This document shows, one piece after another, positions 6 through 56,372 of a stretch of 64,000 nt of DNA; positions within the stretch are counted from its first letter, which is position 1; each line of letters begins with the position of its first letter. This stretch comes from a virus (taxonomy: Duplodnaviria; Heunggongvirae; Uroviricota; Caudoviricetes), in the IMG/VR virus record IMGVR_UViG_3300043399_000596; one strand, 5' to 3'. Under the pieces are notes generated by a model. That model was not told where the DNA came from. It was given only the letters and a program-made list of their open reading frames with translations, and ran no database searches. The position numbers were made by a program, and so were the translations under genes.

Positions 6-206
6 TTGAATGAAAATGCTATCAGTATACTCAAGTGGGCAGAAAAGAAAATGCAGGAAGAAGCGGACCTAAATAGATTAGCTGAGTCTAGTCCTGCTAT
101 CAAAGACTTAGTTAACCAAATGAATAGTAGTATTGCATCATATAAGCATAAAATTGATATGGTTAAAACGCTAATTAGAGAAGAAGAAAAAGTTGGAACA
201 AGTTAA
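6..206 (+). CDS. hypothetical protein (may be 5'-truncated at window edge)
   Basis: ORF track; charged, coiled-coil-like sequence; no recognisable motif. Confidence 0.3.
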   Translation: MNENAISILKWAEKKMQEEADLNRLAESSPAIKDLVNQMNSSIASYKHKIDMVKTLIREEEKVGTS

Positions 207-1779
207 TCTATCTAAAGCACATGATCCTGAATGGGCACTGTTTTTACCGGCAGTGTCTAGTTTCTATATTGCTGGCCTGGGTAAACAACGATCAGGCGAA
301 CAATACTTTGATGCAAATCGCATACCTCAGAGTTTTAATGGTGATGTAGAAAAGTTAAATTTTCTAAACGAAAAGGAAGGTCTGTACACTTATAAATGGG
401 GTCTGTATTCTGCAGGACATGCTAACTTAGATGTAACTGTCACAGATCCTGCAGAAAGTATTATTCGTGATCGTGACCGTCAAAATACATTTTTGTTAGG
501 TGACTCTGGTGGATTTCAGATTCTCAAGTGTCAGTGGCCTGCTGATTGGAAGGATCCTAATTGTCCACGAGCCATGAAGAAACGTAAAGAAGTTTTGACA
601 TGGATGGATACTTACATGGATTATGGTATGTGTCTAGATATCCCTTCACAATCTCTAACTACATATCATATCAAAGATCCAAAGACTGGCAAATCTGCCC
701 ACGGTATTAGCACTATTGAAGAAGCTATTAGTGCTACGCATATTAATAATGAATATTTCATTAAACATCGAAATGGTAATTGCAAATTTTTGAATGTGTT
801 GCAAGGTAGAAATCATGACCAATCTGATAGTTGGTATGATGAAATGAAAAAATATTGCGATCCTAACATCTATCCTGAGACCCACTTTAACGGATGGGCA
901 TTCGGGGGTCAAAATAAAATTGACATGCATTTGATGTTGCGCCGTCTTGTTAATATCATACATGATGGATTGTTGCAACCCGGCAAGCATGATTTGATTC
1001 ACTGCTTGGGTGTAAGTATTTTGGAATATGCTGTTCTCTTTTCTGATATTCAACGTGCTATTCGTAAATATCATAATCCAAATCTAAGAATCACGTATGA
1101 CTGTGCTAGCCCATTCTTTAGTGCGGCTAAGGGATTGATCTATTTCAACAACAGTTTTGAACATAGAAAGAAATGGTCATACAGTATGGAAAAGACCGCT
1201 GAGAGTAAGAACTACGGAGTTAGCGCAAATGGTGCTCCGGGCGGTGATCAACGCAAATTTAGTGATGCATGTCTACAAGACGGTGTACACAAAATCTTTA
1301 CTGATAGTCCAGTTACTGATATGCTAAAAATGAAAGATGTATGTTACCGAGGTCAAGGATTTATTAACCAACAAGGTAAAGAGACAAAAACATCTTGGGA
1401 TACGTTGAGTTACACACTAGTTCAAAGCCATAATGTATATCAACACATTGTTGCAGTGCAGGAAGCGAATCGCAAATATGAACAAGGTGTGAGACCTAAA
1501 ATGGTTATGCACAAACTGGATGACTGTCATTTTGGTGATATTATCGATGAGATTTTTAGCCTAAATGATAGACAAAGAAGTCTAGATTTAATAGACTCAC
1601 ATAGTTCCTTGTGGATGCAAATGCAATCCGGAAGTCAAGGAATTAGTGGTAAGAAAACAATTAATGTTATGACTACCTGGGATAAACTTTTCGTTGAAAA
1701 AGACACTTATGAAGATTCTTCACCAGAAGAAGAACTGGAAGACAGTGACGATGCAATGAAAGACGTATTAGGAGAATGA
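193..1779 (+). CDS. dpdA: tRNA-guanine transglycosylase (TGT)-family protein, DpdA-like 7-deazaguanine DNA transglycosylase
   Basis: 528-aa ORF carrying the TGT catalytic loop 'LLGDSGGFQILK' (DSGGFQ Asp nucleophile motif); lies in a cluster with folE/queD/queE. Confidence 0.6.
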   Translation: MEQVNLSKAHDPEWALFLPAVSSFYIAGLGKQRSGEQYFDANRIPQSFNGDVEKLNFLNEKEGLYTYKWGLYSAGHANLDVTVTDPAESIIRDRDRQNTFLLGDSGGFQILKCQWPADWKDPNCPRAMKKRKEVLTWMDTYMDYGMCLDIPSQSLTTYHIKDPKTGKSAHGISTIEEAISATHINNEYFIKHRNGNCKFLNVLQGRNHDQSDSWYDEMKKYCDPNIYPETHFNGWAFGGQNKIDMHLMLRRLVNIIHDGLLQPGKHDLIHCLGVSILEYAVLFSDIQRAIRKYHNPNLRITYDCASPFFSAAKGLIYFNNSFEHRKKWSYSMEKTAESKNYGVSANGAPGGDQRKFSDACLQDGVHKIFTDSPVTDMLKMKDVCYRGQGFINQQGKETKTSWDTLSYTLVQSHNVYQHIVAVQEANRKYEQGVRPKMVMHKLDDCHFGDIIDEIFSLNDRQRSLDLIDSHSSLWMQMQSGSQGISGKKTINVMTTWDKLFVEKDTYEDSSPEEELEDSDDAMKDVLGE

Positions 1780-1780
1780 T

Positions 1781-1993
1781 ATGCCATATAAAAGTAGAAT
1801 CAAGACTTTGGAAGAATCTCATAGATTAGTAGATAATCAATTGTTCCAATTAGAGAAGTCAGGAGTAGGAGATTCTGATAAAATACAAAAACTACGAGAG
1901 ACAAAACAAAAGTATCTCAGTGAATTACAACAACTACGCCGCGCACAATGGGACTATGACCATGAGCGTGTAGACTTTGATGATGATCGCTAA
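1781..1993 (+). CDS. hypothetical small protein
   Basis: ORF track; ATGA-type coupling with neighbours; coiled-coil-like. Confidence 0.35.
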   Translation: MPYKSRIKTLEESHRLVDNQLFQLEKSGVGDSDKIQKLRETKQKYLSELQQLRRAQWDYDHERVDFDDDR

Positions 1994-2186
1994 TACTGCT
2001 GTAATGACTTTGGATCAAGAATCCAATATCACGTTGAATACTAATACTACTGAAATGCTACGGATTAGCAAAGATGGGTTTTATGTTCGCGGAGTTAGGG
2101 TAAATCAAGATGAAAAAGAAGCGGAAATAGTGTACAATACATTTCATCAGTGGTTAACATGGGCAACACTTAATAGGAATTACTAA
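1977..2186 (+). CDS. hypothetical small protein
   Basis: ORF track, co-directional tight packing. Confidence 0.3.
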   Translation: MMMIANTAVMTLDQESNITLNTNTTEMLRISKDGFYVRGVRVNQDEKEAEIVYNTFHQWLTWATLNRNY

Positions 2187-2638
2187 TGGAACAACGTGAA
2201 CAAGCACTTGCAGAACAACGTGCAAGAATCAAAGACAAAGCCAAACGAATGATTTGGGTAACCTTCAACAAAGAAGGTATCCATCGCTACCCAGCAGCAT
2301 CTACTGACCCGAAACTTGCAACGGGTGATGAGTATGATGTTAGCTTTTTGGGTATGCCACACAGACATATTTTCCACTTCACTGTGGGGATTCAAGTATT
2401 TCATAATGACCGTGATATTGAGTTCATCCAGTTCAAACGCTGGCTTGAGAACCTTTACAAAGAAGGTACTCTGGAACTTAATTTCAAGTCATGTGAAATG
2501 ATTAGTGATGATCTTTACGAACAAATCGCTAGTCGCTATACAGGGCGTGACGTTGAAATCAGTGTTTCCGAAGACAATGAGAACGGCGCCACAATCTGTT
2601 ATAATACAACTCAACCTTATCAACAACTCGCTATTTAA
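2186..2638 (+). CDS. hypothetical protein
   Basis: 150-aa ORF, start overlaps upstream stop; no motif recognised. Confidence 0.4.
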   Translation: MEQREQALAEQRARIKDKAKRMIWVTFNKEGIHRYPAASTDPKLATGDEYDVSFLGMPHRHIFHFTVGIQVFHNDRDIEFIQFKRWLENLYKEGTLELNFKSCEMISDDLYEQIASRYTGRDVEISVSEDNENGATICYNTTQPYQQLAI

Positions 2639-2652
2639 AGGAAATATTAAAA

Positions 2653-2865
2653 ATGGCAAAACCTAAACTTACTGGCACTTTTAGTACCGAACATCAAATC
2701 TTCACTGATTTGGAAAATTACAAAGAATTTTGTGTAGATTTCGGTTATAAGTGGGACGAATCAACTTTGTATGACATGCGAAGTTTCTCATATCGTCAAT
2801 TCCAGAAAAAGACTTCAGGTAAAGAAGCAAAAAACAATTGGGATGATTTAGTCAAGGAAGTATGA
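2653..2865 (+). CDS. hypothetical small protein
   Basis: ORF track; ATGA overlap with next gene. Confidence 0.35.
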   Translation: MAKPKLTGTFSTEHQIFTDLENYKEFCVDFGYKWDESTLYDMRSFSYRQFQKKTSGKEAKNNWDDLVKEV

Positions 2866-3629
2866 AAATAGTATTGGTCACTGGTGGATTCGATCCAATT
2901 CATAGCGGTCACATTGAATATTTTCGTGCTGCTAGAAATTTAGGTGATCAACTAATCGTCGGCTTAAATAGTGACGAATGGTTGGCTCGTAAGAAGGGCC
3001 AACCTTTTATGCCATTATCTGAGCGCAGAACGATAGTTGGTAATCTAAAAGACGTTACTGCAACAATGGTATATAATGATGATGACAACTCAAGCTGTAA
3101 TGCAATTGAAGAATTGCTAAATCATTGTGGACCAAATGATGAAGTAATCTTTGCTAATGGTGGTGATCGCACAAAGGAAAACATTCCTGAAATGCGTATA
3201 TCTGATCCTAGAGTTAAGTTTGTTTTCAGTGTCGGTGGTGACAATAAAATGAATTCTAGTAGTTGGATCTTGCGTGAATGGAAGAATCCAAAAACTGAAA
3301 GACAATGGGGTTACTATCGTGTATTGCATGATGTACCTGGATGCAAAGTAAAAGAACTTACAGTAGAGCCGGGTAAAAAACTGAGTATGCAAAAACACTT
3401 CAAACGAAATGAATACTGGTTAGTTAGTGAAGGTAAATGTGAAGTATTATCTATGATGAACAATGGATACAGACTTCCAACTAAGATGCTAGAACAACAT
3501 AATTCTTATAATATTTCAGCAGGTGATTGGCATCAGCTAAGTAATCCATATACAGAACCTTGTCGTATTGTAGAGATTCAATACGGTGAAGCATGTATTG
3601 AAGAAGATATTGAAAGAAAAGATGCGTAA
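2862..3629 (+). CDS. sugar-phosphate nucleotidyltransferase (cytidylyltransferase-like, RfaE-II/TagD type) fused to a C-terminal cupin domain
   Basis: N-terminus 'VLVTGGFDPIHSGHIEYFRAARNLGDQLIVGLNSD' is the HxGH nucleotidyltransferase signature; C-terminal 'G..S.Q.H..R.E.W.V..G' cupin-like beta-barrel pattern. Confidence 0.6.
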   Translation: MKIVLVTGGFDPIHSGHIEYFRAARNLGDQLIVGLNSDEWLARKKGQPFMPLSERRTIVGNLKDVTATMVYNDDDNSSCNAIEELLNHCGPNDEVIFANGGDRTKENIPEMRISDPRVKFVFSVGGDNKMNSSSWILREWKNPKTERQWGYYRVLHDVPGCKVKELTVEPGKKLSMQKHFKRNEYWLVSEGKCEVLSMMNNGYRLPTKMLEQHNSYNISAGDWHQLSNPYTEPCRIVEIQYGEACIEEDIERKDA

Positions 3630-4809
3630 ACTATATTACATGGGTCTTGAGCCCTATAAAGCACGTTACACACTGCAACTAACAGAGTGGAATGAACGTG
3701 TGTTTAAACGCCGCGGCATTGATTATGTAGTTGTGCCCGGAGATACACTTTCAACTGACCAACAAATCGTAACAGGTCAAGTGCTTGACGCACATGGTCG
3801 TAGTTACTTTGGTATGAGTCAGTTGATGAATCTTGTTAAATTGATGAAGGAAGGACAGGTAACCAGTGAAGATGTTATCTATTTTGAAGACATGTTCCAA
3901 CCGGGCTTTGAAAGTTTGCCTTATATTCTTAATCAAGTGCCTGAGTCACATCGTCCGAGAATTTATGTACGTTGTTTGGCACAATCAATTGATCCTGACG
4001 ATTTTGTTCACGTTTGGGGAATGTCACGTTGGATGGGGTCGTATGAACAGATGGTATGTGAAGCAGTACAGCAATCTAATGGCGGTATTCTCGCAACTAA
4101 CGAAGAAATGGTCATGCACATGAAGATTGCAGGTTGGGAAGCTCCGATCTACAATATCAGTGGTCTAGCATTTAGTAAAGATGAAGTACGTGAACGTGTA
4201 GGACAAATAATTCCGTTTGGTGAACGCAAGCATCGAGTTGTGTTCAGTGCTCGTTGGGATCAAGAAAAACAACCTGATTTCTATATGGATCTAATAGAAG
4301 AATTTTACAAACGTCATCCAAATCGTTATGTAGAATTTGCTATTTGCAGTGGTGCGAAATTGCGTAGTAACAACGATAGTTATATGCAACGTACTAGGAA
4401 AATGATTGATGAAGGTAAAATTAAACTATACGAGGATCTAGGAAAAAATGATTACTACAGTATCGTTAACGATAGCCGTGTAGTTTTTAATTGTGCATTG
4501 CAAGACTGGGTATCTAATACAGTATCAGAAGCTGACGCCCTGGGTTGCAACGTGCTATATCCTGCTTATCGTAGCTTTCCAGAATCTTTTGCTAATGATG
4601 CAGAAAGGTTGTATATCCCCTGGTCTATAAACGATGCAATCGATAAGTTAGAAAAACTACTTGAGAAACCACATCACAATATTGGGAAAATAAGTGACTG
4701 GACTAATTTGACAGTAGACAGGATCTGTGATATAATCGAGGGGCGAGGCGAGCAATATTTGCGTATGTCTACCGATTATCGCAAACACACTAGAGAAGCA
4801 AAATATTAA
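3586..4809 (+). CDS. putative GT-B glycosyltransferase (GT4-like), paralog of 10161..11495
   Basis: Shared block 'VVFSARWDQEKQPDFYMDLIEEF' vs 'VLFVGRWEEGKNPELFIDLIEQT' matches the GT4 'GRl..eKg...li.a' C-terminal motif. Confidence 0.4.
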   Translation: MKHVLKKILKEKMRKLYYMGLEPYKARYTLQLTEWNERVFKRRGIDYVVVPGDTLSTDQQIVTGQVLDAHGRSYFGMSQLMNLVKLMKEGQVTSEDVIYFEDMFQPGFESLPYILNQVPESHRPRIYVRCLAQSIDPDDFVHVWGMSRWMGSYEQMVCEAVQQSNGGILATNEEMVMHMKIAGWEAPIYNISGLAFSKDEVRERVGQIIPFGERKHRVVFSARWDQEKQPDFYMDLIEEFYKRHPNRYVEFAICSGAKLRSNNDSYMQRTRKMIDEGKIKLYEDLGKNDYYSIVNDSRVVFNCALQDWVSNTVSEADALGCNVLYPAYRSFPESFANDAERLYIPWSINDAIDKLEKLLEKPHHNIGKISDWTNLTVDRICDIIEGRGEQYLRMSTDYRKHTREAKY

Positions 4810-4819
4810 GGAGAAAACT

Positions 4820-5014
4820 ATGTCAGCACATGACGATATTAAAACACACTTGGCAGCATACGAAGCCGAAAATGAAAAGTTCAACAAAGGTAATGCAGCA
4901 GCAGGCACCCGTGCCCGTAAAGCACTAGCAGAGTTGGCAAAGGCTGTTAAAGCACGCCGTAATGAAATTACAGCAGAAAAAGCTGCAAGAGCAGAAGCAA
5001 AAGCAAAGGCCTAA
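4820..5014 (+). CDS. small Ala/Lys-rich basic (histone H1-like) protein
   Basis: 64 aa; 'ARKALAELAKAVKARR...AEKAARAEAKAKA'; strong SD 'aaggagaaaactATG'. Confidence 0.45.
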   Translation: MSAHDDIKTHLAAYEAENEKFNKGNAAAGTRARKALAELAKAVKARRNEITAEKAARAEAKAKA

Positions 5015-5016
5015 TC

Positions 5017-5289
5017 ATGGCAACTCGCAAAAAGAAAGAATCAGTGAAACTGACTATTCCTAATGCGATCGGTGCGGCAAAAATCGAAGTAGGTACACAC
5101 TTAACTGTTTATACCTACGATGATGGTCGCACCGAATTACTTTGGGACGATGAACAACTTCTTAAAGAGGTTCGTGAAGCGATTGCTAGTGTCGAAACAA
5201 ACAAAAAAACAGTAGCTAAAAAGGCTCCTGAAAAGAAAGTAGCTGCAAAAACACCAGCAGAAAAGACAACTAAAAAAGCAAAAGCATAA
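5017..5289 (+). CDS. small protein with Lys/Ala/Pro-rich basic C-terminal tail
   Basis: C-terminus 'KKTVAKKAPEKKVAAKTPAEKTTKKAKA' resembles H1/AlgP-type tails. Confidence 0.45.
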   Translation: MATRKKKESVKLTIPNAIGAAKIEVGTHLTVYTYDDGRTELLWDDEQLLKEVREAIASVETNKKTVAKKAPEKKVAAKTPAEKTTKKAKA

Positions 5290-5308
5290 ATAAGTATGTC
5301 ACACAACG

Positions 5309-6037
5309 GTGACAACAACTCAATTTTCATATCCGCGTAAGGAAGGATTCTATATGTCTTATAACAAAACAAAAACCGATCCCGAATTGGGTCAAAAAGT
5401 ACACGAACATCTAGTTAAGATGGGTGTTGAAACTCCGATCAAAGAACATAAAATGGTTCCAGATAGGAAAGCAAAGATTGAAGTAATTGAAAAACTCTTT
5501 GCTGATATCATGAAAACCCTTGATTTAGACTTGACTGATGATAGTCTAATTGAAACACCTAAGCGTGTTGCTAAGATGTATGTTAACGAAATTTTCTGGG
5601 GTTTAGATTATGAAGCATTCCCAAAATGCACGACTGTGGATAATAAGATGCAGTATAATGAAATGGTCGTGGAGCGTAACGTGTCCGTCCAAAGCAATTG
5701 CGAACATCATTTTGTCGTTATTGACGGTTTGGCAACTGTTGCTTATGTTCCTAAGCAAAGAGTACTCGGTCTGTCAAAGATCAACCGAATCGTGGAATAC
5801 TTCTCTAAGCGACCTCAAATACAAGAGCGACTTACTGAACAAATCTTCCACACGTTACAGTACATTCTAGACACCGAAGATGTAGCAGTTATGATTGACG
5901 CACAACACTATTGTGTGAAATCAAGGGGCGTGGAAGATACAGGTAGTTCTACTGTAACAGTTCGTTTGGGTGGCGGATTCAAAAACGATCCAGCAGCACG
6001 AAATGAATTCTTGTCTATCGCTAGGATGGGCAAATGA
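5309..6037 (+). CDS. folE: GTP cyclohydrolase I
   Basis: Conserved FolE core 'CEHHFVVIDGLATVAYVPKQRVLGLSKINRIVEYFSKRPQIQERLTEQI'. Confidence 0.85.
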   Translation: MTTTQFSYPRKEGFYMSYNKTKTDPELGQKVHEHLVKMGVETPIKEHKMVPDRKAKIEVIEKLFADIMKTLDLDLTDDSLIETPKRVAKMYVNEIFWGLDYEAFPKCTTVDNKMQYNEMVVERNVSVQSNCEHHFVVIDGLATVAYVPKQRVLGLSKINRIVEYFSKRPQIQERLTEQIFHTLQYILDTEDVAVMIDAQHYCVKSRGVEDTGSSTVTVRLGGGFKNDPAARNEFLSIARMGK

Positions 6038-6155
6038 CCTTATTTATTATTTTAATATCAGTAGCAATCGCTATATCAATTGTTCGTAGATTGCCCGGTG
6101 GTTGCACTGGTGATTGTAATCAAGGTCGTAGACCATGTAACTGCAATAAAAAATA

Positions 6156-6416
6156 ATGAATAGAAGTCCCTTCAGAACCAAAGAAGAAGCAATCGAATTC
6201 TTGCAACGAATCGGTATGAAGAAACGCAGGGTACTTGAAGGTGAAGAGCGTGACCAAATACTAACAGTATTAGCTTTAATAGGACCCACAGATGTTAGTA
6301 ATAATCAACGAACATTTACTGAAACATACCATCACGCAGGCAAAGAATATGAAGTAACATATGGGTTCAGCGATGTAGGTCCTACCCCGTATGTAGAGGA
6401 AATTACAGAGTTATGA
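6156..6416 (+). CDS. hypothetical small protein
   Basis: ORF track; ATGA overlap with next gene. Confidence 0.35.
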   Translation: MNRSPFRTKEEAIEFLQRIGMKKRRVLEGEERDQILTVLALIGPTDVSNNQRTFTETYHHAGKEYEVTYGFSDVGPTPYVEEITEL

Positions 6417-6886
6417 TTTTCAACCATGTTAAAAAACTTAAACAAGAAGGTAAAAGAATTGGTATCACGTTTAGCACATTTGATTTGCTACATGCGGGAC
6501 ACATTGCGATGCTTAGTGAAGCGAAAAACCACTGTGACTACCTCATATGCGGGCTACAAACAGACCCCACTATCGATAGGCCAGACACTAAAAACAAACC
6601 TATACAAAGTATTGTTGAACGTCAGATACAGTTGGCTGCTTGTAGATATGTTGATGAAGTTGTTGTTTACTCTACCGAACAAGACCTCGTGGACCTACTC
6701 CTTATACTGCCTGTGGATACAAGGATACTCGGTGTCGAGTATGCTGACAAAGAGTTCACTGGAAAAAATGAATGCACCCTTCGGGGGATAGAAATCGTGT
6801 ATAACGGCAGAGATCACTCCTTTAGTTCCAGTAGCCTCCGTAAACGTGTCTATGATAGTGAGTCCAACAAAAGGGGAAACCAATGA
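6413..6886 (+). CDS. cytidylyltransferase-family nucleotidyltransferase (TagD-like)
   Basis: 'IGITFSTFDLLHAGHIAMLSEAKNHCDYLICGLQTD' HxGH motif; 'RYVDEVVVY' matches glycerol-3-phosphate cytidylyltransferase. Confidence 0.55.
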   Translation: MIFNHVKKLKQEGKRIGITFSTFDLLHAGHIAMLSEAKNHCDYLICGLQTDPTIDRPDTKNKPIQSIVERQIQLAACRYVDEVVVYSTEQDLVDLLLILPVDTRILGVEYADKEFTGKNECTLRGIEIVYNGRDHSFSSSSLRKRVYDSESNKRGNQ

Positions 6887-7182
6887 ATGATTACAATCAT
6901 TTTGTCCAAAGATTCAGTGTCAAACATATTCAGGTAGTTCGTGACCGTAAGTTTGATACTATTAATTACAATTACAATCAACCTGCAAGTTATTACGCTG
7001 ACCGCGAAGAACTAATTGAAATAGAACTTACACGTAGTGGGTTTGAAAATTTGGTCAAGATAGATAGTGAATACACTAGATTATGGCAAGACCAAAGTGA
7101 TGAAAAATGGTTACACAAACAATATCCAGCGTTGAAAGATGCATATGATAAGTACCAAACATTATTGGCACTTTACAAATAA
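6883..7182 (+). CDS. hypothetical protein
   Basis: ORF track; ATGA overlap with upstream gene. Confidence 0.35.
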   Translation: MNDYNHFVQRFSVKHIQVVRDRKFDTINYNYNQPASYYADREELIEIELTRSGFENLVKIDSEYTRLWQDQSDEKWLHKQYPALKDAYDKYQTLLALYK

Positions 7183-7267
7183 AAATGGTAAATAAAGATA
7201 GCGGCCTCGGTCATCATCCCGCTTTACAAATTCTGCTGCCTATGTTAAACTAATATAGGAGAAAATT

Positions 7268-7756
7268 ATGACATATCGTGAAAAGAAATATCGCTCTACG
7301 AAAACTTATAGACAAATTGCGCCGTGCGCCTATCGTCAATGGCGTGCCGACTCGCATTGTAATCAGATCCATGGTTACGCATTCTCGTTCCATTTTGAAT
7401 TTGAGACAGATGATCTGGATGCTCGTAACTGGGCGTTTGACTATGGTGGACTCAGACCACTTAAAGATAAGCTCGAAGAATGGTTTGATCACACTTTATT
7501 GGTTGCTCAAGATGATCCTCATCGTGCAGAACTATTGCGTTTGGGTGAACTCGGTCTTGCTAAAATTACTGAGGTCGAAAAGACCGGATGTGAAGGACTT
7601 GCTGATTTTCTATACGAATATATCAATACGATATTCCTCCCCTCATGTGGAAAGACAGAGGCTGATAGACTTTGGTGCTGTAGAGTTGAAGTTCGTGAAA
7701 CTGACTCCAACATGGCAATGAGAGTTGGCCACAGAGAAGATAATGAATTCAATTGA
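7268..7756 (+). CDS. queD: 6-carboxy-5,6,7,8-tetrahydropterin synthase (QueD/PTPS family)
   Basis: 'CAYRQWRADSHCNQIHGYAFSFHFEFE' carries the CxxxHGH-type PTPS zinc motif; good SD 'taggagaaaattATG'. Confidence 0.7.
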   Translation: MTYREKKYRSTKTYRQIAPCAYRQWRADSHCNQIHGYAFSFHFEFETDDLDARNWAFDYGGLRPLKDKLEEWFDHTLLVAQDDPHRAELLRLGELGLAKITEVEKTGCEGLADFLYEYINTIFLPSCGKTEADRLWCCRVEVRETDSNMAMRVGHREDNEFN

Positions 7757-7927
7757 AAAAATTTGGGCTAGAGCCACCGGTCATCTAATGGGTAATACCG
7801 ACGATGACCGTCCGGATGTACCAATACTAACTTTGCGTGAAGCAAGAATCTCATTGTTCCTAAAAACTTTCTGGGTTGTTATACATGTGATAACATGCTT
7901 CTTTATTATTGCAAACACTATTAGGCA

Positions 7928-8215
7928 TTGGTAAATATGGATAGCCGAATTCAAGAAACGTTAGACATTTTACAAGAAGAATGTGCTGAGGTTATCGTTG
8001 AGGTTAGCAAGTGCCGAAGATTCGGGCTTGCTAGCAAACATTATAAAACCGGATTAGAACATTCTATAATGTTGGAAAATGAAATAGGTGATGTACTTGC
8101 TATGGTTGACATTCTACTAGAACAGGGTGTAATATCACAATCAAACTTAGACATTGCTAAGCAAAATAAAAAAGAAAAACTGAAGAAGTGGTCAAACATC
8201 TATGTCACAAATTAA
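7928..8215 (+). CDS. possible MazG-like all-alpha NTP pyrophosphohydrolase
   Basis: 'LQEECAEVIVEVSKCRRFG...ENEIGDVLAMVDILLEQ' resembles MazG EExxE/D helices; weak. Confidence 0.3.
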   Translation: MVNMDSRIQETLDILQEECAEVIVEVSKCRRFGLASKHYKTGLEHSIMLENEIGDVLAMVDILLEQGVISQSNLDIAKQNKKEKLKKWSNIYVTN

Positions 8216-9068
8216 AGTAGCAGAATTATTTTATAGTATCCAGGGTGAAGGTCGTTACATGGGCGTACCAAGCGTGTTCTTACGCACGTTTGGTTGCAAC
8301 TTTACATGCGGCGGTTTTGGAATGCCCGCGGGAACTATTAGTGAAGAAAGAAACAAGATTGACGCAGACAATATTAAAAATTATAAAGATTTGCCCCTCG
8401 TATCTACAGGATGCGATTCATATGCTAGTTGGGATGTTAGGTTTAAGCATCTTTCTCCTGTACTCAGTACTGATAGTCTTGCCGAAAGCATTACTGATAT
8501 TCTTCCTTTCAAAACTTGGCGTGAAGAACACTTGGTAATTACAGGCGGTGAACCATTACTGGGTTGGCAACGTGCTTATCCTGATTTGCTGAATCACGAA
8601 AAAATGCAGGATTTGAAAGAGTTGACGTTTGAAACAAACGGTACACAAGATTTGAGTAAAGAGTTCAGACACTATTTGTTGAACTGGACTTTGAATCCCC
8701 GCGGTACTCCTGGTGGTCGCCGAGGTCGTGATAGCTTGACATTCAGCGTAAGTCCTAAACTAAGTAACAGCGGTGAAAAATGGGAAGATGCAATTCGTCC
8801 TGATGTTATCATGCAGTATGAGGATGTTGGTTACACTTACTTAAAGTTCGTAGTAGCTATACATGATGATGTTGACGAAGCATTAGAAGCAACTAATGAG
8901 TATCGCAACGCAGGATTTAAAGGTCCTGTATATTTGATGCCAGTTGGTGGTGTAGAAAATGTCTATAGTCTTAATAATCGCAGAGTTGCAGATTTAGCAA
9001 TGAAGCATGGATTGCGTTATAGTGACAGACTTCAAGTTCCATTGTTTAAGAACGAGTGGGGTACATGA
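8202..9068 (+). CDS. queE: 7-carboxy-7-deazaguanine synthase (radical SAM)
   Basis: N-terminus 'FYSIQGEGRYMGVPSVFLRTFGCNFTCGGFG' is the QueE Cx14CxxC-type radical-SAM signature. Confidence 0.8.
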   Translation: MSQIKVAELFYSIQGEGRYMGVPSVFLRTFGCNFTCGGFGMPAGTISEERNKIDADNIKNYKDLPLVSTGCDSYASWDVRFKHLSPVLSTDSLAESITDILPFKTWREEHLVITGGEPLLGWQRAYPDLLNHEKMQDLKELTFETNGTQDLSKEFRHYLLNWTLNPRGTPGGRRGRDSLTFSVSPKLSNSGEKWEDAIRPDVIMQYEDVGYTYLKFVVAIHDDVDEALEATNEYRNAGFKGPVYLMPVGGVENVYSLNNRRVADLAMKHGLRYSDRLQVPLFKNEWGT

Positions 9069-9304
9069 TGCTTGATGGAGAAGTATCAGGAGCTCCGCGT
9101 GAAGAAGATTGGGGCTTAAACAAAGTACAAAACTGGAAGTACAAACTATGCTGGCGCCCTAATACTTGTTTTCTAACAGGAAAGCAACTATGGGGAAAGA
9201 AAGCCTATCACGGTGTTCGTATGATTACCGGTCCCGGAGATCCAGTATATGAAGATTACTGGATTGATAGAAACAAATTCATGTTATGGAAACTTACAAA
9301 ATGA
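9056..9304 (+). CDS. hypothetical small protein
   Basis: ORF track; overlaps queE stop. Confidence 0.3.
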   Translation: MGYMMLDGEVSGAPREEDWGLNKVQNWKYKLCWRPNTCFLTGKQLWGKKAYHGVRMITGPGDPVYEDYWIDRNKFMLWKLTK

Positions 9305-9528
9305 AACAAAAATTTAAAGAAATAGCACTAGAAGTGGGCGGTAGTCATTACCCAGATGTGGGTGGAGCATTACTAGAAAAATTCGGCGAAATGGTTGTAG
9401 AAGAATGTGTTAAAGTATTAGAGAACGGTGACTATAGAAAGGTTACCTATACTACTTTTGATGCTTGCTTTAATCCTAGAATTGTGCAAGAATGCATTAG
9501 ATTAATTAACGATACTTTTAAGGAGTAA
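9286..9528 (+). CDS. hypothetical small protein
   Basis: ORF track. Confidence 0.35.
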   Translation: METYKMKQKFKEIALEVGGSHYPDVGGALLEKFGEMVVEECVKVLENGDYRKVTYTTFDACFNPRIVQECIRLINDTFKE

Positions 9529-9531
9529 ATC

Positions 9532-10164
9532 ATGGCAGAGTGGAGTGTAAAACCATCATGGAAAAAATCTATCATTGAACGTAACTATCTTGTTAAAGAT
9601 GGTCAAACTTTTATGGTAGAAACGGGATGGCGTTGGGGTGAATTTTTAGTATATACTGACGATGACAATCCACCAAAAATCGAAGCAGGTGTGGATATCT
9701 ACAATTGTGACTACGAAACTGAGTTAATTGAAACAACCGATGGTTGTTGGGAAGAGTATGATTACGATGATGTAGATGACGAAACCCGCGAATGGTTAGA
9801 AGAATTTTTTGATGAAGGTAATAGTTGGCTTGACCTTGAAGAACATGGTTGGAGTCAAGATGAGTGTGAAATGATTATTGACTGTGACCTTGAAATTAGA
9901 AAATTAAACGAAGATGGCACATGTGGCGAACTTGTCGAAACAAATCAGGAAGAAGACGCAGATACTGAGCAAGCACTACCTAAAACAGGTGCTGTATGGC
10001 CCTTTACAAATGCTAGTAGTGAAGAAACTGAATTAGCAGAATTTACTTGCGAAGATTGTGGATATAGTACTGAGGATATCAACGACTTAGTAGACAATCC
10101 AAACGATGATGACAAGGGTGCATATGTTTGCCCTGAGTGCGGTGGTAGAGTCAACCTAGGATGA
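9532..10164 (+). CDS. highly acidic protein with C-terminal double-CxxC zinc ribbon
   Basis: Asp/Glu-rich ('YDYDDVDDETREWLEEFFDEG'); 'CEDCGYS...YVCPECGG' at C-terminus. Confidence 0.4.
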   Translation: MAEWSVKPSWKKSIIERNYLVKDGQTFMVETGWRWGEFLVYTDDDNPPKIEAGVDIYNCDYETELIETTDGCWEEYDYDDVDDETREWLEEFFDEGNSWLDLEEHGWSQDECEMIIDCDLEIRKLNEDGTCGELVETNQEEDADTEQALPKTGAVWPFTNASSEETELAEFTCEDCGYSTEDINDLVDNPNDDDKGAYVCPECGGRVNLG

Positions 10165-11495
10165 GAACATACGATAAGCGTATTGGTTTTTTAGTGAGTT
10201 ATCAAACATTGATACCTCACGGTGGTATTGGGCAATTCGCAAAAAGTTTTTGTGAGTTGATGGACGAACATAATATCAAAGTAGATATTATCACGGATAA
10301 AGAACCTAAGGATAATGATTTTGTAAAATCTCTAAAAGCTAATATTATTTCTCCGGTAAACTCATTGTCCTACACGGATCACAGCAACATCTTTATGTAT
10401 GGTGATACATTTTGTTATGAGCGCATGGCTAACTTCCGCAATGCGATTGTTAATGCGTTAGAACATAATTTGTATGATGCACTTATCTGTAACACATACG
10501 AAACGGTTCAAGTAGCAAGCACAATGGGTCTAGAAGATGTGATTCAAGTTATTGCGTATACTCATTTAGAAAGTCAAATTTTTAAAGACACAAAGAATCC
10601 TTTCTTACACAATACTAACGAATTGATGCGACACCAGCTAAGCATTCCTAATATTGATGTAGGTACACAAAGCAAATTCAACCAACTTAACTTAGATGAA
10701 TCTGCATTTCATCTTCCTATACCCATTACTGAACGTTCATTATTGGAAGAATATCACGGTGAGCGTGAGGGTGTATTATTTGTAGGACGATGGGAAGAAG
10801 GTAAAAATCCTGAGTTGTTTATTGATTTGATTGAACAAACTGGATTGCCTGCTAAAGTAATGACAAGCCCAAACGGTGTTAAAAAGTTTGAAGAACGCTT
10901 AAAAAAGATTGGTGCAACATATGATGTTCGTGCTAGTATTGTTGGACAAGAGAAAGTCGATTTCATTAAGAGTTCACGAATTGCTTTTAACCCAAGTGTT
11001 GTCGAGAGTTACGGGATGGCATTCTATGAACAACATATTCAACTACCGACATTAGTTTTAACAGAACAACGTTGGACTAAAAACTTTAATGACGATTTCT
11101 TTTATAGTTGCACAAAGAAGGACATGGCTAAACGTGCTAAAGATTTATATGACAGTTTTGAAAACGCAAGCACCTGGTATTTACTGGGTTCATTAGCCCA
11201 TGCTAGACAACAAGAATCAACAGTATTTCATAAATGGAATGAATGTTTCAATACGTTTAAGCCAAAAGAATCTAATAATAACACCGCAAAGATTTGCAGT
11301 GAGACCACAGTAAAATTAGAAGATTATGTTAAAGATTTGGATCGTAAGATTATTTGTATAGACGATATACGAAGCGTGTTAACGAACAAACATAAATTCA
11401 GAGTTATATATACTGATACCGATACTTATTTGACTAAAGACCCTTCATTTGAACCAACTGAAGAAAAATCAAATTCATTATTTGAGGGACTATGA
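10161..11495 (+). CDS. putative GT-B glycosyltransferase (GT4-like)
   Basis: 'GVLFVGRWEEGKNPELFIDLIEQ...SRIAFNPSVVESYGMAFYE' fits the GT4 C-terminal domain; paralog of 3586..4809. Confidence 0.45.
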   Translation: MRTYDKRIGFLVSYQTLIPHGGIGQFAKSFCELMDEHNIKVDIITDKEPKDNDFVKSLKANIISPVNSLSYTDHSNIFMYGDTFCYERMANFRNAIVNALEHNLYDALICNTYETVQVASTMGLEDVIQVIAYTHLESQIFKDTKNPFLHNTNELMRHQLSIPNIDVGTQSKFNQLNLDESAFHLPIPITERSLLEEYHGEREGVLFVGRWEEGKNPELFIDLIEQTGLPAKVMTSPNGVKKFEERLKKIGATYDVRASIVGQEKVDFIKSSRIAFNPSVVESYGMAFYEQHIQLPTLVLTEQRWTKNFNDDFFYSCTKKDMAKRAKDLYDSFENASTWYLLGSLAHARQQESTVFHKWNECFNTFKPKESNNNTAKICSETTVKLEDYVKDLDRKIICIDDIRSVLTNKHKFRVIYTDTDTYLTKDPSFEPTEEKSNSLFEGL

Positions 11496-12352
11496 CACAC
11501 AAAGTTTTAATTACAGGAAATTCTGGATATATAGGATCTTATCTTTCACAACTATTAATGAAAGATGACGAATTTCATGTAACAGGTTTAGATAAAGTAA
11601 AGCCACAAGTTCCCGTGCATACTCAGTACATTATGGATATCACGCAACCTTTTGTGATTCAACCTGAGTTTGATACAGTAATTCATTTAGCTGCCTTAGT
11701 AAATGTAGGTGAAAGTGAAAAAGTTCCCGTTGACTATTACACTACAAACTTGATTGGTACAATGAACGTACTAAATTTTATCGATGCAAAGAACTTTGTA
11801 TTTGCTAGTACTGGTGCTGCTGAAGGATGTAGTTCTGCATACGGTGTCAGCAAAAGAGCCGCAGAAGATGTTGTTTGGGAATTATGTAAGAAGCGCGGCA
11901 TTGACTATACAACATTTAGGTTCTATAACGTAGTAGGATTTGAAGGAATATTCCCTACTAACCCAGATGGACTTATGTTCAATCTCATGAAAGCCATGAA
12001 GACTGGCTCATTCACTATCTTTGGGAAAGACTACGAACAATCTTGGGATGGTACATGTGTGCGTGATTACGTGCATGTTAATGAAATTTGCGAAGCACTA
12101 AAATTAGCAATCAAAAATCCTAGTAACAAGATTGAATGTTTGGGTCACGGAGTAGGTCACACTGTCAGAGAAATGGTTAATATTTTCCAAGAAGTAAATA
12201 ACTGTGACTTTGATGTTAACTATGGACCTAGAAGAAAAGGTGACCTGCCATGTAGTGTTTTGGAAGAAGTGAGTCCATACATGATACAAAAGTATTCGAT
12301 TCAGGACCTAATGCGTGTTGACATTAAACAAAGACAAAAGTATACTGCATAG
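11492..12352 (+). CDS. NAD-dependent sugar epimerase/dehydratase (extended SDR)
   Basis: 'VLITGNSGYIGSYL' Rossmann GxxGxxG plus 'YGVSKRAAE' YxxxK catalytic motif. Confidence 0.7.
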   Translation: MTHKVLITGNSGYIGSYLSQLLMKDDEFHVTGLDKVKPQVPVHTQYIMDITQPFVIQPEFDTVIHLAALVNVGESEKVPVDYYTTNLIGTMNVLNFIDAKNFVFASTGAAEGCSSAYGVSKRAAEDVVWELCKKRGIDYTTFRFYNVVGFEGIFPTNPDGLMFNLMKAMKTGSFTIFGKDYEQSWDGTCVRDYVHVNEICEALKLAIKNPSNKIECLGHGVGHTVREMVNIFQEVNNCDFDVNYGPRRKGDLPCSVLEEVSPYMIQKYSIQDLMRVDIKQRQKYTA

Positions 12353-12353
12353 T

Positions 12354-13373
12354 ATGAATACACCTATTAAACGCATTGGTTTTGCCTGCAAGTGGGCAGA
12401 GATTAACAAAAAAGGCGAGATCGCCAGTACTGAAGGTTTGAATACTGGCGGTACTACTATGGCATGGGCAAAGCGCAACAGTCGTGCTACTGTCGAACAA
12501 AAAATCATTGATGTTGCTAAGACCAACATTATGAATACACATGCACTGATTAAGAAGGTAGCTACACTACCTGAACCACTGCGTATGTTACGCATCACTA
12601 GTGACATGCTTAGTTTCTATACACACGAAGACTGGCAAGGATTCTGGCAATCTACAAATACGCAAGACCAACTTGCACGTTGGTTCGCACCACTGGGCGA
12701 GACTGCACGTGCCAATAATGTTCGTGTTTCTTTTCATCCCGATCAGTTTGTAGTTCTTGCTAGTGAAAACGAAAATATTGTAAATAAGAGTATCGAGGAG
12801 TTTGAGTATCACACTGATATGGCTCGCTGGATGGGTTATGGCAAGACATTTCAGGATATGAAAATTAATGTTCATATCAGTGGTCGACAAGGTCCTGCAG
12901 GCATTCGCAAAGCGTATCAACGACTAACTCCTGAAGCACGTAACTGTATTACTATTGAGAACGAAGAAAATGCCTGGGGACTTGATGATTGCCTTACTCT
13001 ATCTGATTTGCTTCCAATTGTGTTGGACATTCATCATCATTGGGTGCGAGAAGGAGAATACTTGGAGGCATCCTCAGAGCGTGTTCAGCGGGTTATTGAT
13101 TCTTGGCGCGGCGTTCGCCCTACTCTACATTATTCTGTTTCACGTGAAGATATCCTTGTTGGTCATTGCACTAATACTCTTCCATGCCGCGAGAGCCTAA
13201 TCGCCGGTGGTACTAATAAACAAAAACTCCGCGCACATAGCGACTATTATTGGAATAATGCAGTAAATAATTGGGCAATGACATTTCATGATAAATTCGA
13301 TATGATGTGCGAAAGCAAGGCTAAGAATCTTGCAAGCCATAAACTATACGAGCAATACTATGGGAATATTTGA
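12354..13373 (+). CDS. uvsE: UV DNA damage endonuclease (UvdE/UvsE family)
   Basis: Aligns with Bacillus UvsE: 'IKRIGFACKW', 'VRVSFHPDQFVVLAS', 'INVHISGRQG', 'HSDYYWNNAV'; start moved to ATG right after the epimerase stop. Confidence 0.8.
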   Translation: MNTPIKRIGFACKWAEINKKGEIASTEGLNTGGTTMAWAKRNSRATVEQKIIDVAKTNIMNTHALIKKVATLPEPLRMLRITSDMLSFYTHEDWQGFWQSTNTQDQLARWFAPLGETARANNVRVSFHPDQFVVLASENENIVNKSIEEFEYHTDMARWMGYGKTFQDMKINVHISGRQGPAGIRKAYQRLTPEARNCITIENEENAWGLDDCLTLSDLLPIVLDIHHHWVREGEYLEASSERVQRVIDSWRGVRPTLHYSVSREDILVGHCTNTLPCRESLIAGGTNKQKLRAHSDYYWNNAVNNWAMTFHDKFDMMCESKAKNLASHKLYEQYYGNI

Positions 13374-37640: not shown

Positions 37641-37855
37641 CAAAAGGAAGACGAGTACAAGTGCATGACGGAAACTGGGAAAAGGCACTAAGAAAATTAA
37701 AAAAGAAAATCACTGACACGGGTTTACTACAGGAACTAAAAGATAGACAAGAATTTGTTAAACCCGCAGTAAAAAGAAAAATTGCAAAAAACCAAGCAGT
37801 CCGTCGTTGGAAAAAACACTTGCGTGACCAGCAGCTTCCTCCCAAACTATTCTAA
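37637..37855 (+). CDS. rpsU: 30S ribosomal protein S21
   Basis: 72 aa basic; '[20 protein letters not shown]...[26 protein letters not shown]' matches S21. Confidence 0.7.
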
Positions 37856-41422: not shown

Positions 41423-41437
41423 TGGTTAATTGAAAAA

Positions 41438-56369: not shown

Positions 56370-56372
56370 TGT

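Follow-up and report, generated by a model that had tools for sequence, protein, structure and literature searches.

Gene content of the locus

A tightly packed block of genes, all on the + strand, occupies one end of the window, the window being the whole 64 kb stretch of viral DNA analysed, which is itself part of the larger genome of a big, uncultured phage. All of the ORFs listed in the first-pass annotation exist at the coordinates assigned there, and its description of a co-directional, translationally coupled block is upheld by five 4-nt start/stop overlaps (2862/2865, 6413/6416, 6883/6886, 10161/10164 and 11492/11495). The DpdL ORF was overlooked in that first reading. The features identified, with the evidence for each, are:

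193..1779, +, long DpdA-like guanine transglycosylase of the PA5oct type, 528 aa (fold model and motifs)
2186..2638, +, DpdL, QueD-like T-fold, proposed 7-carboxy-7-deazaguanine decarboxylase (signature and homology)
2653..2865, +, conserved 70-aa ORF 3′ of DpdL (homologues after DpdL in related loci)
2862..3629, +, HIGH-motif sugar-phosphate nucleotidyltransferase fused to a PMI-type cupin (Pfam CTP_transf_like 8e-13, MannoseP_isomer 4e-21)
3622..4809, +, GT1, GT-B/GT4-type glycosyltransferase (model fold, invariant motifs, co-occurrence)
4820..5014, +, Hc1-like small basic, histone-like protein (homologues carry PF07432)
5309..6037, +, FolE, GTP cyclohydrolase I (Pfam 6e-61, NCBIfam 1.5e-96)
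6413..6886, +, NT2, TagD/RfaE-domain-II-like HIGH nucleotidyltransferase (NCBIfam rfaE_dom_II 1.3e-22, g3p_cytidyltrns 5e-17)
7268..7756, +, QueD, 6-carboxytetrahydropterin synthase, motif CxxxHGY (Pfam PTPS 3e-15, NCBIfam QueD 1.5e-8)
7928..8215, +, MazG-like nucleotide pyrophosphohydrolase, weakly assigned (Pfam MazG 2e-4, at the cut-off)
8202..9068, +, QueE, radical-SAM 7-carboxy-7-deazaguanine synthase (PHROG QueE-like 1.5e-52)
10161..11495, +, GT2, second GT-B-like glycosyltransferase, lineage-variable (motif, sub-threshold PDB matches)
11492..12352, +, GalE-like NAD-dependent SDR epimerase/dehydratase (Pfam Epimerase 1e-33, NCBIfam GalE 8e-42)
12315..13373, +, UvdE-type UV damage endonuclease (Pfam UvdE 8e-36)

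For the first glycosyltransferase, the ATG at 3622 is the most likely start, in place of the GTG at 3586; homologues of the protein are 389-398 aa in length. FolE probably starts at the ATG at 5354, and UvdE, which closes the block as first described, probably at the ATG at 12354 rather than at 12315. UvdE also lies 3′ of the SDR in three related loci (L064, L065 and L073). In nearly all related loci, the distant clade L084-L086 among them, DpdL is followed by a homologue of the 70-aa ORF, and the small basic ORF is conserved in the clade, with the PF07432 Hc1 domain recognized in L003 and L005.

A QueC-less deazaguanine module

The product of 193..1779 had no matches in Pfam, PHROGs, NCBIfam or PDB sequences, and its assignment therefore needed a structure model. 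The AlphaFold2 model is confident (pLDDT 88, pTM 0.86), and all six of its Foldseek matches in the PDB at E<=1e-3 are tRNA-guanine transglycosylases, 6yry, 6h42, 6h45, 1iq8 and 7owz among them. Motifs are present in the order found in E. coli Tgt, namely DSGGFQ104 (encoded at nucleotide 502), CLDIP147, VLQGR202, WAFGG235, HCLGV270 and TYDCA301, and the protein is 35% identical to PA5oct EST35_0316. The DpdA-like, TGT-family identity proposed from the DSGGFQ loop is thus borne out by fold and catalytic motifs, not by sequence libraries. Neither hhalign nor jackhmmer connected this 528-aa protein with the 259-aa DpdA3 of phiST.

Profile searches likewise agree with the identities given to FolE (5309), QueD (7268) and QueE (8202). 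QueD is 71% identical to ACP17 QueD; QueE has weak Pfam and NCBIfam matches, with NCBIfam QueE models at ~1e-13. DpdL has the exact LxxxHRHxF signature (LGMPHRHIF), matches phrog_17812 at 1.4e-33 and, by tblastn, is related to ACP17 DpdL (54%, 2e-36) and phiST gp040 (33%, 4e-7). As first reported, there is no QueC-like PP-loop ATPase in the 64 kb window: the SGGxD[ST] motif is absent from all six frames, and Pfam scans of ~60 ORFs in the window identified no QueC. The explanations offered at the time, a base derived from 7-carboxy-7-deazaguanine or QueC supplied by the host, are not called for, as DpdL is the hallmark of a published pathway that reaches 7-deazaguanine without QueC (PMC10516641). 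Since the block encodes DpdL, the absence of QueC fits that route, documented for phage phiST. The evidence supports a module for 7-deazaguanine in DNA that has a DpdA-like transglycosylase but no QueC. Heterologous expression of ACP17 DpdL and DpdA yielded no dDG, and missing components were proposed by the authors (PMC10516641).

GT1 is linked to DpdL and the long DpdA

The GT1 model (pLDDT 76) matches BshA, PimA, MshA, glycogen synthase and WaaG (Foldseek, E ~1e-11); T4 AGT and BGT are absent from its best 50 structural matches. The motifs R-x3-EK-x-P and D/E-x7-E are invariant in the family. Among 79 viral loci fetched by GT1 similarity alone, 78 have at least one deazaguanine gene, as do all 32 of those well flanked (>=5 kb on both sides). 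DpdL is present in 32/32 of the well-flanked loci and a long or ACP17-type DpdA in 30/32. GT1 and DpdL are separated by a median of 143 nt and are on the same strand in 66/66 loci. In the reciprocal fetch, based on the long DpdA, GT1 was found in 40 of 41 loci. In control loci with the short phiST-type DpdA3, GT1 is present in 0/34, though DpdL is present in 20/34, and GT1 therefore tracks the type of DpdA and not DpdL itself. The DpdA-DpdL-GT1 trio persists, despite differing gene orders, in six cultured phage lineages (PA5oct, ACP17, X1, BCSR5, Phosso and BUCT-ZZ01).

GT1 is, then, obligately associated with DpdL and the long DpdA in unrelated phage lineages. The link between sugar genes and the deazaguanine module suggested by the first-pass annotation is, for GT1, much stronger than could have been known from the one sequence, and the sugar genes belong to the conserved block itself rather than neighbouring it by chance. 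This linkage indicates a function shared with the module; we infer that the acceptor is a deazaguanine.

Accessory sugar genes

The nucleotidyltransferases, SDR and GT2 are lineage-variable accessories, missing from many GT1 loci. Motifs (HxGH at 2901 and 6491) and profile matches agree on the two nucleotidyltransferases originally read at 2862 and 6413, the former fused to a cupin, and the SDR at 11492 is GalE-like, as expected of the epimerase predicted there. About half of the clade has the fusion, and NT2 lies between FolE and QueD in 29/41 clade loci; NT2 homologues are also widespread in phages without any deazaguanine genes. In L177 and L179, the SDR is directly 3′ of GT1 with a 4-nt overlap. 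GT1 and GT2 had been described as GT-B/GT4-like paralogs. Both are GT-B-like, GT2 having an invariant E282-x7-E290 motif and best PDB sequence matches that, below threshold, are all GT-B enzymes, but they are remote relatives rather than close paralogs (hhalign probability 58% over 32 columns). A homologue of GT2 (37%) is found in cyanophage BUCT-ZZ01, where it is located between FolE and DpdA.

In three related loci DpdL is fused to a domain weakly assigned to LmbE/PIG-L (Pfam 0.006; PDB profile matches, E 0.2-0.5), and stand-alone copies adjoin GT1 in X1 and BCSR5; there is no LmbE-like gene in the 64 kb window. Enzymes of the LmbE/PIG-L family act downstream of GT4 GlcNAc transferases in the synthesis of mycothiol, bacillithiol and GPI.

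A proposed glycosylated guanine substitute

On balance, we consider it probable that the block is a QueC-less, DpdL-type module for replacing guanine in phage DNA that ends in a glycosylated 7-deazaguanine-type base. Conversion of GTP to 7-carboxy-7-deazaguanine by FolE, QueD and QueE is an established pathway and would supply the precursor, from which DpdL, according to the published prediction, would remove or remodel the carboxyl group. The long TGT-fold DpdA would then exchange guanine in phage DNA for the DpdL product, a step suggested by its fold and catalytic motifs, by the DNA polymerase gene that the module adjoins and by the resistance of PA5oct DNA to restriction enzymes at guanine-containing sites (PMC12191111). 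GT1 may glycosylate the deazaguanine moiety, acting on the free base or a precursor before insertion or on the DNA after insertion. The two HIGH nucleotidyltransferases, one with its fused cupin isomerase, and the GalE-like SDR could produce or modify the NDP-sugar donor, a second sugar could be added by GT2, and the resulting base would shield the DNA from restriction. If correct, this suggests a sugar-decorated guanine substitute of a kind so far undescribed in DNA.

Against glycosylation, 7-deazaguanine offers no obvious acceptor group; to our knowledge, it lacks a hydroxyl or amine handle such as that of 5-hydroxymethylcytosine. A sugar on this base would imply unusual C-, N2- or O6-glycosylation, or a DpdL activity other than decarboxylation. 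phiST and vibriophage VP1 DNA contain plain dDG, and the literature searched contains no mass-spectrometric datum for any GT1-carrying phage.

It is possible, but we think unlikely, that the substrate of GT1 is a small molecule, either a pterin or a pre-base intermediate, or that GT1 is a non-catalytic partner on which base exchange by the long DpdA depends, the deazaguanine in DNA being unglycosylated in both cases. Pteridine glycosyltransferases are GT4/AviGT4-like, have UDP-GlcNAc, UDP-Glc or UDP-Xyl as donors and use products of the same FolE/PTPS/SDR chemistry, such as tetrahydrobiopterin (PMC5683033, PMC4133829), and the best structural matches of GT1 (BshA, MshA, OtsA, SenB, LmbT) act on small molecules. 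A pterin glycoside, however, needs neither QueE nor a DNA transglycosylase. That GT1 follows the type of DpdA rather than DpdL is what would be expected of a protein partner, but no GT1-DpdA fusion was seen in the related loci, and the invariance of the donor-binding residues across the GT1 family argues against a purely structural role.

Rather improbable, in our estimation, is a plain 7-deazaguanine, as in phiST, with the sugar genes placed here by shared early/middle expression and employed in remodelling host envelope polysaccharide against superinfection or in glycosylating virion proteins. Clusters of HIGH nucleotidyltransferase, cupin isomerase and glycosyltransferase genes in cyanophages and jumbo phages have been read as surface-polysaccharide modification (Iyer et al. 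2021, PMC7824862), and the LPS enzyme WaaG is among the structural neighbours of GT1. The variability of NT, SDR and GT2, and the many phages with NT2 but without deazaguanine genes, are also as this explanation predicts. It does not account for the census, in which GT1 stays beside DpdL and DpdA in rearranged gene orders and is missing with DpdA3, and the block encodes no flippase, polymerase, initiating transferase or other membrane component. The explanation stays viable chiefly where NT2 and the NT-cupin fusion are concerned, and possibly for GT2.

That the sugars are on a different base, such as a T-even-like hydroxymethylated pyrimidine, with deazaguanine an independent second modification, is very improbable: glycosylation of 5-hydroxymethylcytosine in DNA by phage GT-B enzymes is well established (PMC13216743) and PA5oct is reported to have several DNA-modification systems (PMC7824862), but the 64 kb window has no thymidylate-synthase-like hydroxymethylase, TET/JBP dioxygenase or cytosine methyltransferase, and the strict GT1-DpdL-DpdA linkage would be left unexplained.

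Comparison with known systems

The phiST-type dDG system consists of FolE, QueD, QueE, DpdL and DpdA3 (Cui et al. 2023, PMC10516641). The block described here has the same precursor enzymes, a DpdL with LxxxHRHxF, no QueC and adjoining replication genes, and a MazG-like gene is nearby, as MazG is next to DpdL in phiST. It differs in the length of its transglycosylase (528 versus 259 aa) and in the obligate GT4 glycosyltransferase, missing from 34/34 DpdA3 loci. In the Pseudomonas jumbo phage PA5oct, whose deazaguanine system was noted by Iyer et al. 2021 (PMC7824862), the gene order is the same, with a long DpdA (35% identity), a GT1 homologue (hhalign 96.9%), DpdL (61% identity), QueE and an SDR-like gene; the SDR homologue is, however, truncated (172 aa), and the nucleotidyltransferases and GT2 are absent.

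As in T-even glucosylation of 5-hydroxymethylcytosine by AGT and BGT, a phage GT-B enzyme is tied to DNA base replacement, and GT1 may likewise add a sugar in the major groove once the base has been inserted. Here, however, the acceptor pathway is purine-based (deazaguanine), without a hydroxymethylase, and GT1 resembles the GT4 enzymes BshA, MshA and PimA. Its closest folds are BshA and MshA, and related loci have LmbE-like domains, either adjoining GT1 or as fusions with DpdL; both features recall the GT4 plus PIG-L/LmbE pairs MshA/MshB, BshA/BshB and PIG-A/PIG-L. Pteridine glycosyltransferases, for their part, use molecules derived from FolE/PTPS/SDR chemistry as acceptors. The setting here, however, is modification of DNA rather than synthesis of thiols or pigments. 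The mannosyl- and galactosyl-queuosines of eukaryotic tRNA have a sugar on a 7-deazaguanine derivative, at the queuosine cyclopentenediol. The base proposed here would similarly be a glycosylated 7-deazaguanine derivative within a nucleic acid, although with no queuine side chain and with DNA, rather than tRNA, as the target.

Gene content of the modification block

Over its first 13.4 kb, the window holds a co-directional, tightly packed run of + strand ORFs, several of which overlap by 4 nt at their start and stop codons. Library scans agree with most of the enzyme assignments made for this region in the first-pass annotation, with two start codons slightly corrected, and the DSGGFQ and HxGH motifs are present at the positions that it gave.

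Genes of the modification block (coordinates, strand, assignment)
193-1779, +, long DpdA, DpdA-like transglycosylase (predicted; PA5oct type, 528 aa)
2186-2638, +, DpdL, QueD-like (150 aa, phrog_17812)
2862-3629, +, NT-cupin, HIGH-type nucleotidyltransferase fused to a PMI-type cupin (library scan)
3622-4809, +, GT1, first glycosyltransferase
5309-6037, +, FolE (Pfam 6e-61, NCBIfam 1.5e-96)
6413-6886, +, NT2, TagD/RfaE-domain-II-like nucleotidyltransferase (library scan)
7268-7756, +, QueD/PTPS (Pfam 3e-15)
7928-8215, +, MazG-like ORF (weak match)
8202-9068, +, QueE (PHROG 'QueE-like radical SAM' 1.5e-52)
10161-11495, +, GT2, second glycosyltransferase
11492-12352, +, GalE-like SDR (NCBIfam 8e-42)
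12315-13373, +, UvdE (Pfam 8e-36)

Relatives fetched on the DpdA-like protein have the gene order polymerase, DpdA, DpdL, a 70-aa ORF, (NT-cupin), GT1, (Hc1-like) and FolE, followed by NT2, QueD, QueE, GT2, SDR and UvdE. The 70-aa ORF (2653-2865) follows DpdL in almost every related locus and is kept even in clades with a DpdA that is only ~52% identical. Directly after UvdE, a 159-aa ORF (13330-13809) with homologues near QueE in PA5oct (EST35_0324) and Phosso, and also in distant metagenomic clades, may likewise belong to the conserved part of the module. The sole family match of a 422-aa ORF (14408-15676) is a sub-threshold match to PTPS over residues 289-367. Within the block there are also two small, strongly basic, Ala/Lys-rich proteins (4820-5289) that may be DNA-coating proteins; the first is recognized in relatives as Pfam Hc1 (histone H1-like). 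The block seems to be a hotspot for additional tailoring enzymes, and in a close relative (L005, 17415-19768) an SHMT/aminotransferase-like gene and a FAD-dependent oxidase gene lie between QueD and QueE. The first 16 kb had no megablast match among 50,697 phage records, and scans for promoter and terminator consensus sequences performed no better than on shuffled sequence.

DpdL and the absence of QueC

The first-pass annotation reported a deazaguanine and sugar gene block that lacks a QueC-like PP-loop protein, and the library scans, the motif positions and the window scans for QueC together confirm this observation. None of the ~60 window ORFs scanned against Pfam is a QueC, and the PP-loop motif SGGxD[ST] is absent from all six frames of the 64-kb window, which rules out a QueC hidden there. 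A TilS-like PP-loop gene upstream of the polymerase in L005 was rejected as a QueC, being a member of PF01171 and not PF06508. The absence had been read as a possible sign of a CDG-derived base (CDG, 7-carboxy-7-deazaguanine), or of a QueC supplied by the host or encoded elsewhere, but it is explained by the ORF at 2186-2638, which the first-pass annotation overlooked. This ORF contains LGMPHRHIF, an exact match to the LxxxHRHxF signature that, in DpdL, takes the place of the QueD motif CxxxHGH (Cui et al. 2023, PMC10516641). By tblastn it is related to the named DpdL proteins of Acidovorax phage ACP17 (54%, 2e-36) and Cellulophaga phage phiST (33%, 4e-7), and the H, R, H, F, R, E, SCE and ED columns of the DpdL alignment are invariant. 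DpdL is a QueD-like protein, proposed to be a CDG decarboxylase, in phages that have FolE, QueD, QueE and DpdA without QueC (PMC10516641). As the window encodes DpdL, the missing QueC is a feature of this known route, and the full set, FolE, QueD, QueE, DpdL and a DpdA, is present with QueC absent within the 64-kb window. The DNA of phiST contains 2'-deoxy-7-deazaguanine (dDG; PMC10516641), and complete replacement by dDG has been reported for one vibriophage. When expressed in E. coli, the ACP17 DpdL and DpdA gave no product, and missing enzymes were suggested by the authors (PMC10516641). In two phages with DpdA3, the short phiST-type transglycosylase, DpdL is preceded at its N-terminus by long additional segments that match no family (L094, 9191-10372, Vibrio phage Bakedbeans gp176; L096, 9437-10321).

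A divergent transglycosylase

The long DpdA has no match to PF01702 (TGT) or PF20314 (DUF6610/DpdA4), and searches of Pfam, NCBIfam, PHROGs and PDB sequences, by phmmer and with a 9-sequence family profile against PDB sequences, returned nothing, consistent with a protein too divergent for sequence models. Its AlphaFold2 model, made from a 76-sequence alignment (pLDDT 88, pTM 0.86), is a TGT-type TIM-barrel. At E<=1e-3, Foldseek matched no PDB entries but six structures of tRNA-guanine transglycosylases, from bacteria, human (QTRT1), mouse and archaea, the best at 6e-7; the TM-scores are modest (0.38/0.51), so that the protein is a divergent member of the TGT fold. Each of the motifs sought (DSGGFQ, xxDE/D, QG, AxGG, LxGxG and FDC) has a counterpart, and DSGGFQ104, CLDIP147, VLQGR202, WAFGG235, HCLGV270 and TYDCA301 occur in the order seen in E. 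coli Tgt and with similar spacing. The register was taken from a weak local hhalign match of the 76-sequence family profile to E. coli Tgt (probability 18%), which served for this only, and the Tgt sequence used was checked against PDB 10fa. D104, D149, Q204, G238-G239, L272-G273 and D303 are invariant in the 76 homologues and, by analogy with other TGTs, presumably provide the catalytic aspartates and the substrate pocket. The CxCxxC motif of the TGT zinc site (CxCxxC...H) is absent from the long DpdA, and C384, H413 and H418 are conserved in the family. Alignment to the phiST DpdA3 has an hhalign probability of 0.3%, and jackhmmer searches from DpdA3 fall short of the long DpdA.

The long DpdA family has 6,416 clusters (90% identity) at E<=1e-3, metagenomic and on contigs of up to 482 kb, and its cultured-phage homologues are in the Pseudomonas jumbo phage PA5oct (35% identity) and phages related to it, in Sinorhizobium phage Phosso and in one Vibrio jumbo phage. 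In relatives, the DpdA gene adjoins a DNA polymerase gene. The restriction resistance pattern of PA5oct DNA points to a modified guanine (PMC12191111), and a system for deazaguanine synthesis and incorporation has already been listed in PA5oct (Iyer et al. 2021, PMC7824862). We accept the assignment of 193-1779 as a DpdA-like transglycosylase, one that probably acts on DNA rather than tRNA.

A glycosyltransferase linked to DpdL and the long DpdA

The GT1 model is usable (pLDDT 76) and has a GT-B fold, with 370 PDB matches at E<=1e-3, of which the top 50 are nearly all GT-B glycosyltransferases, led by the GT4 enzymes BshA, PimA, MshA, glycogen synthase, WaaG and OtsA. Highly divergent members of the GT1 family keep an N-terminal E-P-x3-RYT, R-x3-EK-x-P and the second E of E-x7-E; this donor-binding motif reads D-x7-E in the window and E-x7-E in the members from ACP17 and PA5oct, the second E being constant throughout. 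In GT2, E282-x7-E290 is invariant and the GT-B sequence matches are weak.

With similarity to GT1 as the only criterion (24-38% identity to the protein of ACP17), viral contigs were fetched and then scored with HMMs for the genes of the pathway. One or more deazaguanine genes are present in 78 of these 79 loci. Where the contig extends at least 5 kb on both sides of GT1 (n=32), DpdL is always present (32/32), as is a long or ACP17-type DpdA in 30, QueE in 27 and FolE in 25. GT1 and DpdL are separated by a median gap of 143 nt and are on the same strand in 66/66 loci. In the converse search, on the long DpdA, GT1 is present in 40 of the 41 loci fetched. In a control set of 34 loci fetched on DpdA3 there are no GT1, GT2 or SDR genes, and DpdL is present in 20. 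GT1 is, therefore, an obligate partner of DpdL and the long DpdA. A search with GT1, in which 8,000 candidates were scored, yielded 7,996; with a narrower GT1 alignment, a profile search of genome contigs identified only three MAG contigs. No fusion of GT1 to DpdA or DpdL is present in the loci examined.

The split between GT1 and DpdA3 is repeated in cultured phages, six against six, and there every GT1 homologue lies no more than a few genes away from DpdL.

GT1 homologues in cultured phages (gene order)
ACP17, DpdA-GT1-DpdL-QueE
Xanthomonas phages X1 and BUDD, GT1 homologues near DpdL; order in X1 GT1-DpdA-DpdL-QueE
Burkholderia BCSR5, GT1 homologue near DpdL
Phosso, DpdL-GT1
PA5oct, DpdA-GT1-DpdL (hhalign 96.9%)
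BUCT-ZZ01, a T4-like cyanophage of Synechococcus, FolE-GT2-DpdA-DpdL-GT1

The linkage of GT1 with the long DpdA, and its absence from DpdA3 loci, define two architectures of the QueC-less pathway. The first is DpdA3 with DpdL, for which plain dDG has been documented in phiST; the second is the long DpdA with DpdL and GT1. We found no paper that reports the link of GT1 to DpdL and the long DpdA.

Accessory sugar genes

The sugar genes are part of the deazaguanine module, GT1 as its obligate member and NT2, SDR and GT2 as accessories that vary in occurrence. Among the 79 GT1-fetched loci, 12 have NT2, 7 SDR and one GT2, and the corresponding numbers in the window's own clade (n=41) are 29, 16 and 10. 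NT2-like genes are widespread in phages that have no deazaguanine genes and occur in 2 of the 34 DpdA3 loci without GT1, and NT2 was rejected as specific to the module. In contigs binned with Haliscomenobacter (L177, L179) and Chitinophagales (L178) MAGs, SDR is the next gene after GT1 and overlaps it by 4 nt, the order being DpdA-DpdL-GT1-SDR-(NT2)-FolE; either phage contigs were placed in the wrong bins, or the binning points to the host group. The PA5oct cluster has a truncated SDR, and in BUCT-ZZ01 GT2 lies between FolE and DpdA. BUCT-ZZ01 also has a phosphoribosyltransferase gene between QueE and QueD (L088, 16303-16764, - strand; Pfam Pribosyltran 3e-13), which hints at conversion of base to nucleotide, so that a nucleotide-level step is possible in some lineages.

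In three loci, DpdL carries at its N-terminus a fused domain with the motifs AP-H-x-DDE and H-P-x-H (APHPDDE ... HPHH) of LmbE/PIG-L deacetylases, and stand-alone copies lie beside GT1 in two cultured phages.

LmbE/PIG-L-like domains (tentative assignment)
L134, 221-1048, fused to DpdL, metagenomic
L136, 1457-2287, fused to DpdL, metagenomic
L155, 8633-9544, fused to DpdL, metagenomic
L090, 6384-7031, stand-alone beside GT1, Xanthomonas X1
L091, 11927-12634, stand-alone beside GT1, Burkholderia BCSR5

Judged from these motifs, the DpdL-fused domain might be LmbE/PIG-L-like, although the assignment is weak. Its fusion to DpdL is an argument for a single molecule as the target of both DpdL and the sugar chemistry. 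In X1 and BCSR5, a PAPS-reductase-like PP-loop gene adjoins the LmbE-like gene.

A possible pathway and its alternatives

In the pathway that we propose, FolE, QueD and QueE would convert GTP to CDG, DpdL would remodel the CDG and the long DpdA would exchange guanine in DNA for the resulting product. GT1 would glycosylate the deazaguanine moiety, before or after insertion, with the donor presumably supplied by the nucleotidyltransferases and SDR, and the glycan extended by GT2. The main weakness of this scheme is chemical, namely that 7-deazaguanine lacks a classical acceptor group, and it therefore calls for either an unusual glycosylation or a DpdL product other than the bare base. Two versions are chemically coherent. 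After decarboxylation, the electron-rich pyrrole carbon C7 might be C-glycosylated. Alternatively, DpdL (together, in some lineages, with a reductase-like SDR and an adenylating enzyme) could generate a hydroxylated C7 side chain that would then be O-glycosylated, as is 5-hydroxymethylcytosine in T4. In lineages with the LmbE-like domain, the sugar would be GlcNAc, subsequently deacetylated to glucosamine.

We regard it as a real possibility, if one somewhat short of an even chance, that in phages with the long DpdA, DpdL and GT1 a glycosylated derivative of 7-deazaguanine takes the place of guanine; no purine bearing a sugar would have been known in any DNA before. Such phages include thousands of uncultured large phages as well as PA5oct, ACP17, X1, BCSR5, Phosso and BUCT-ZZ01. 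GT1 might, as a rival, act on a pterin-like small molecule, by analogy with the pteridine glycosyltransferases that do so, or be a partner of the long DpdA. Surface-polysaccharide remodelling is a viable role for the accessory enzymes but a poor fit for GT1. Family scans reveal no membrane-linked components (initiating transferase, flippase, polymerase or acyltransferase) in the block, which sits in the replication module with no linkage seen to lysis or receptor genes.

Genome context

The window appears to be a segment of a large phage genome, with close relatives in Bacteroidota MAGs. Its gene content includes, in addition to the replication genes, a ligase, ClpX, DnaK, Hsp20 and ClpP, together with a set for curli-type secretion and a CHASE2 cyclase. 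The chaperone and protease genes (36444-44585; ClpX 36444-37640, DnaK 37964-39850, Hsp20 39868-40359, ClpP 43965-44585), among which there is a SprT-like protein (41843-42334), resemble the set in the freshwater 'moraphage' lineage (PMC12619734). The curli/type VIII secretion-like set (55824-60527) has CsgF (55824-56369), CsgG (56373-57170), two curlin-repeat proteins (57207-58157 and 59265-60527) and a FecR-like protein (58159-59268). At 61554-63617, a 687-aa protein is a fusion of a CHASE2 sensor and an adenylate/guanylate cyclase domain, and its strong match to phrog_35576 (807 bits) indicates that it recurs in phages. On the - strand there are genes for a Fe/Mn superoxide dismutase (52027-52578) and a NT5C-type 5'-deoxynucleotidase (54365-54919), the latter of which could act on the nucleotide pool.

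Significance and comparison with known systems

The gene combination in this block is real, and is partly explained by known biology, the DpdL route. Beyond that, it is a candidate for an undescribed variant in which a 7-deazaguanine system is coupled to a glycosyltransferase; the arrangement is very common among uncultured phages and occurs in several cultured ones. The 7-deazaguanine modifications of DNA are a main phage counter-defence, with eight derivatives known; to our knowledge, none bears a sugar, nor is any glycosylated purine known in DNA. A second QueC-less architecture emerges from the analysis; it is very common, and in it the dedicated glycosyltransferase is as constant as the transglycosylase. 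GT1 is a concrete candidate for the 'unknown enzyme' invoked after the failure of the ACP17 DpdL and DpdA in E. coli. Cultured phages with the trio make the prediction directly testable. If correct, it bears on escape from restriction enzymes, glycosylases and END nucleases and on sequencing artefacts in viromes, and a sugar-bearing guanine analogue would be a new enzymatic handle for DNA labelling.

In T-even DNA glucosylation, the acceptor is supplied by a hydroxymethyl-pyrimidine enzyme, whereas a Pfam scan of the ~60 window ORFs identified no enzyme that forms a hydroxymethyl-pyrimidine, which argues against the sugars being added to a modified pyrimidine. The glycosylated-deazaguanine pathway that we prefer also differs from the phiST-type system, in which the transglycosylase belongs to the DpdA3 subfamily, as the window enzyme falls outside DpdA3. 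The occurrence of a LmbE-like domain with GT1 recalls the pairs in which a GT4 enzyme is followed by a deacetylase, MshA/MshB, BshA/BshB and PIG-A/PIG-L.
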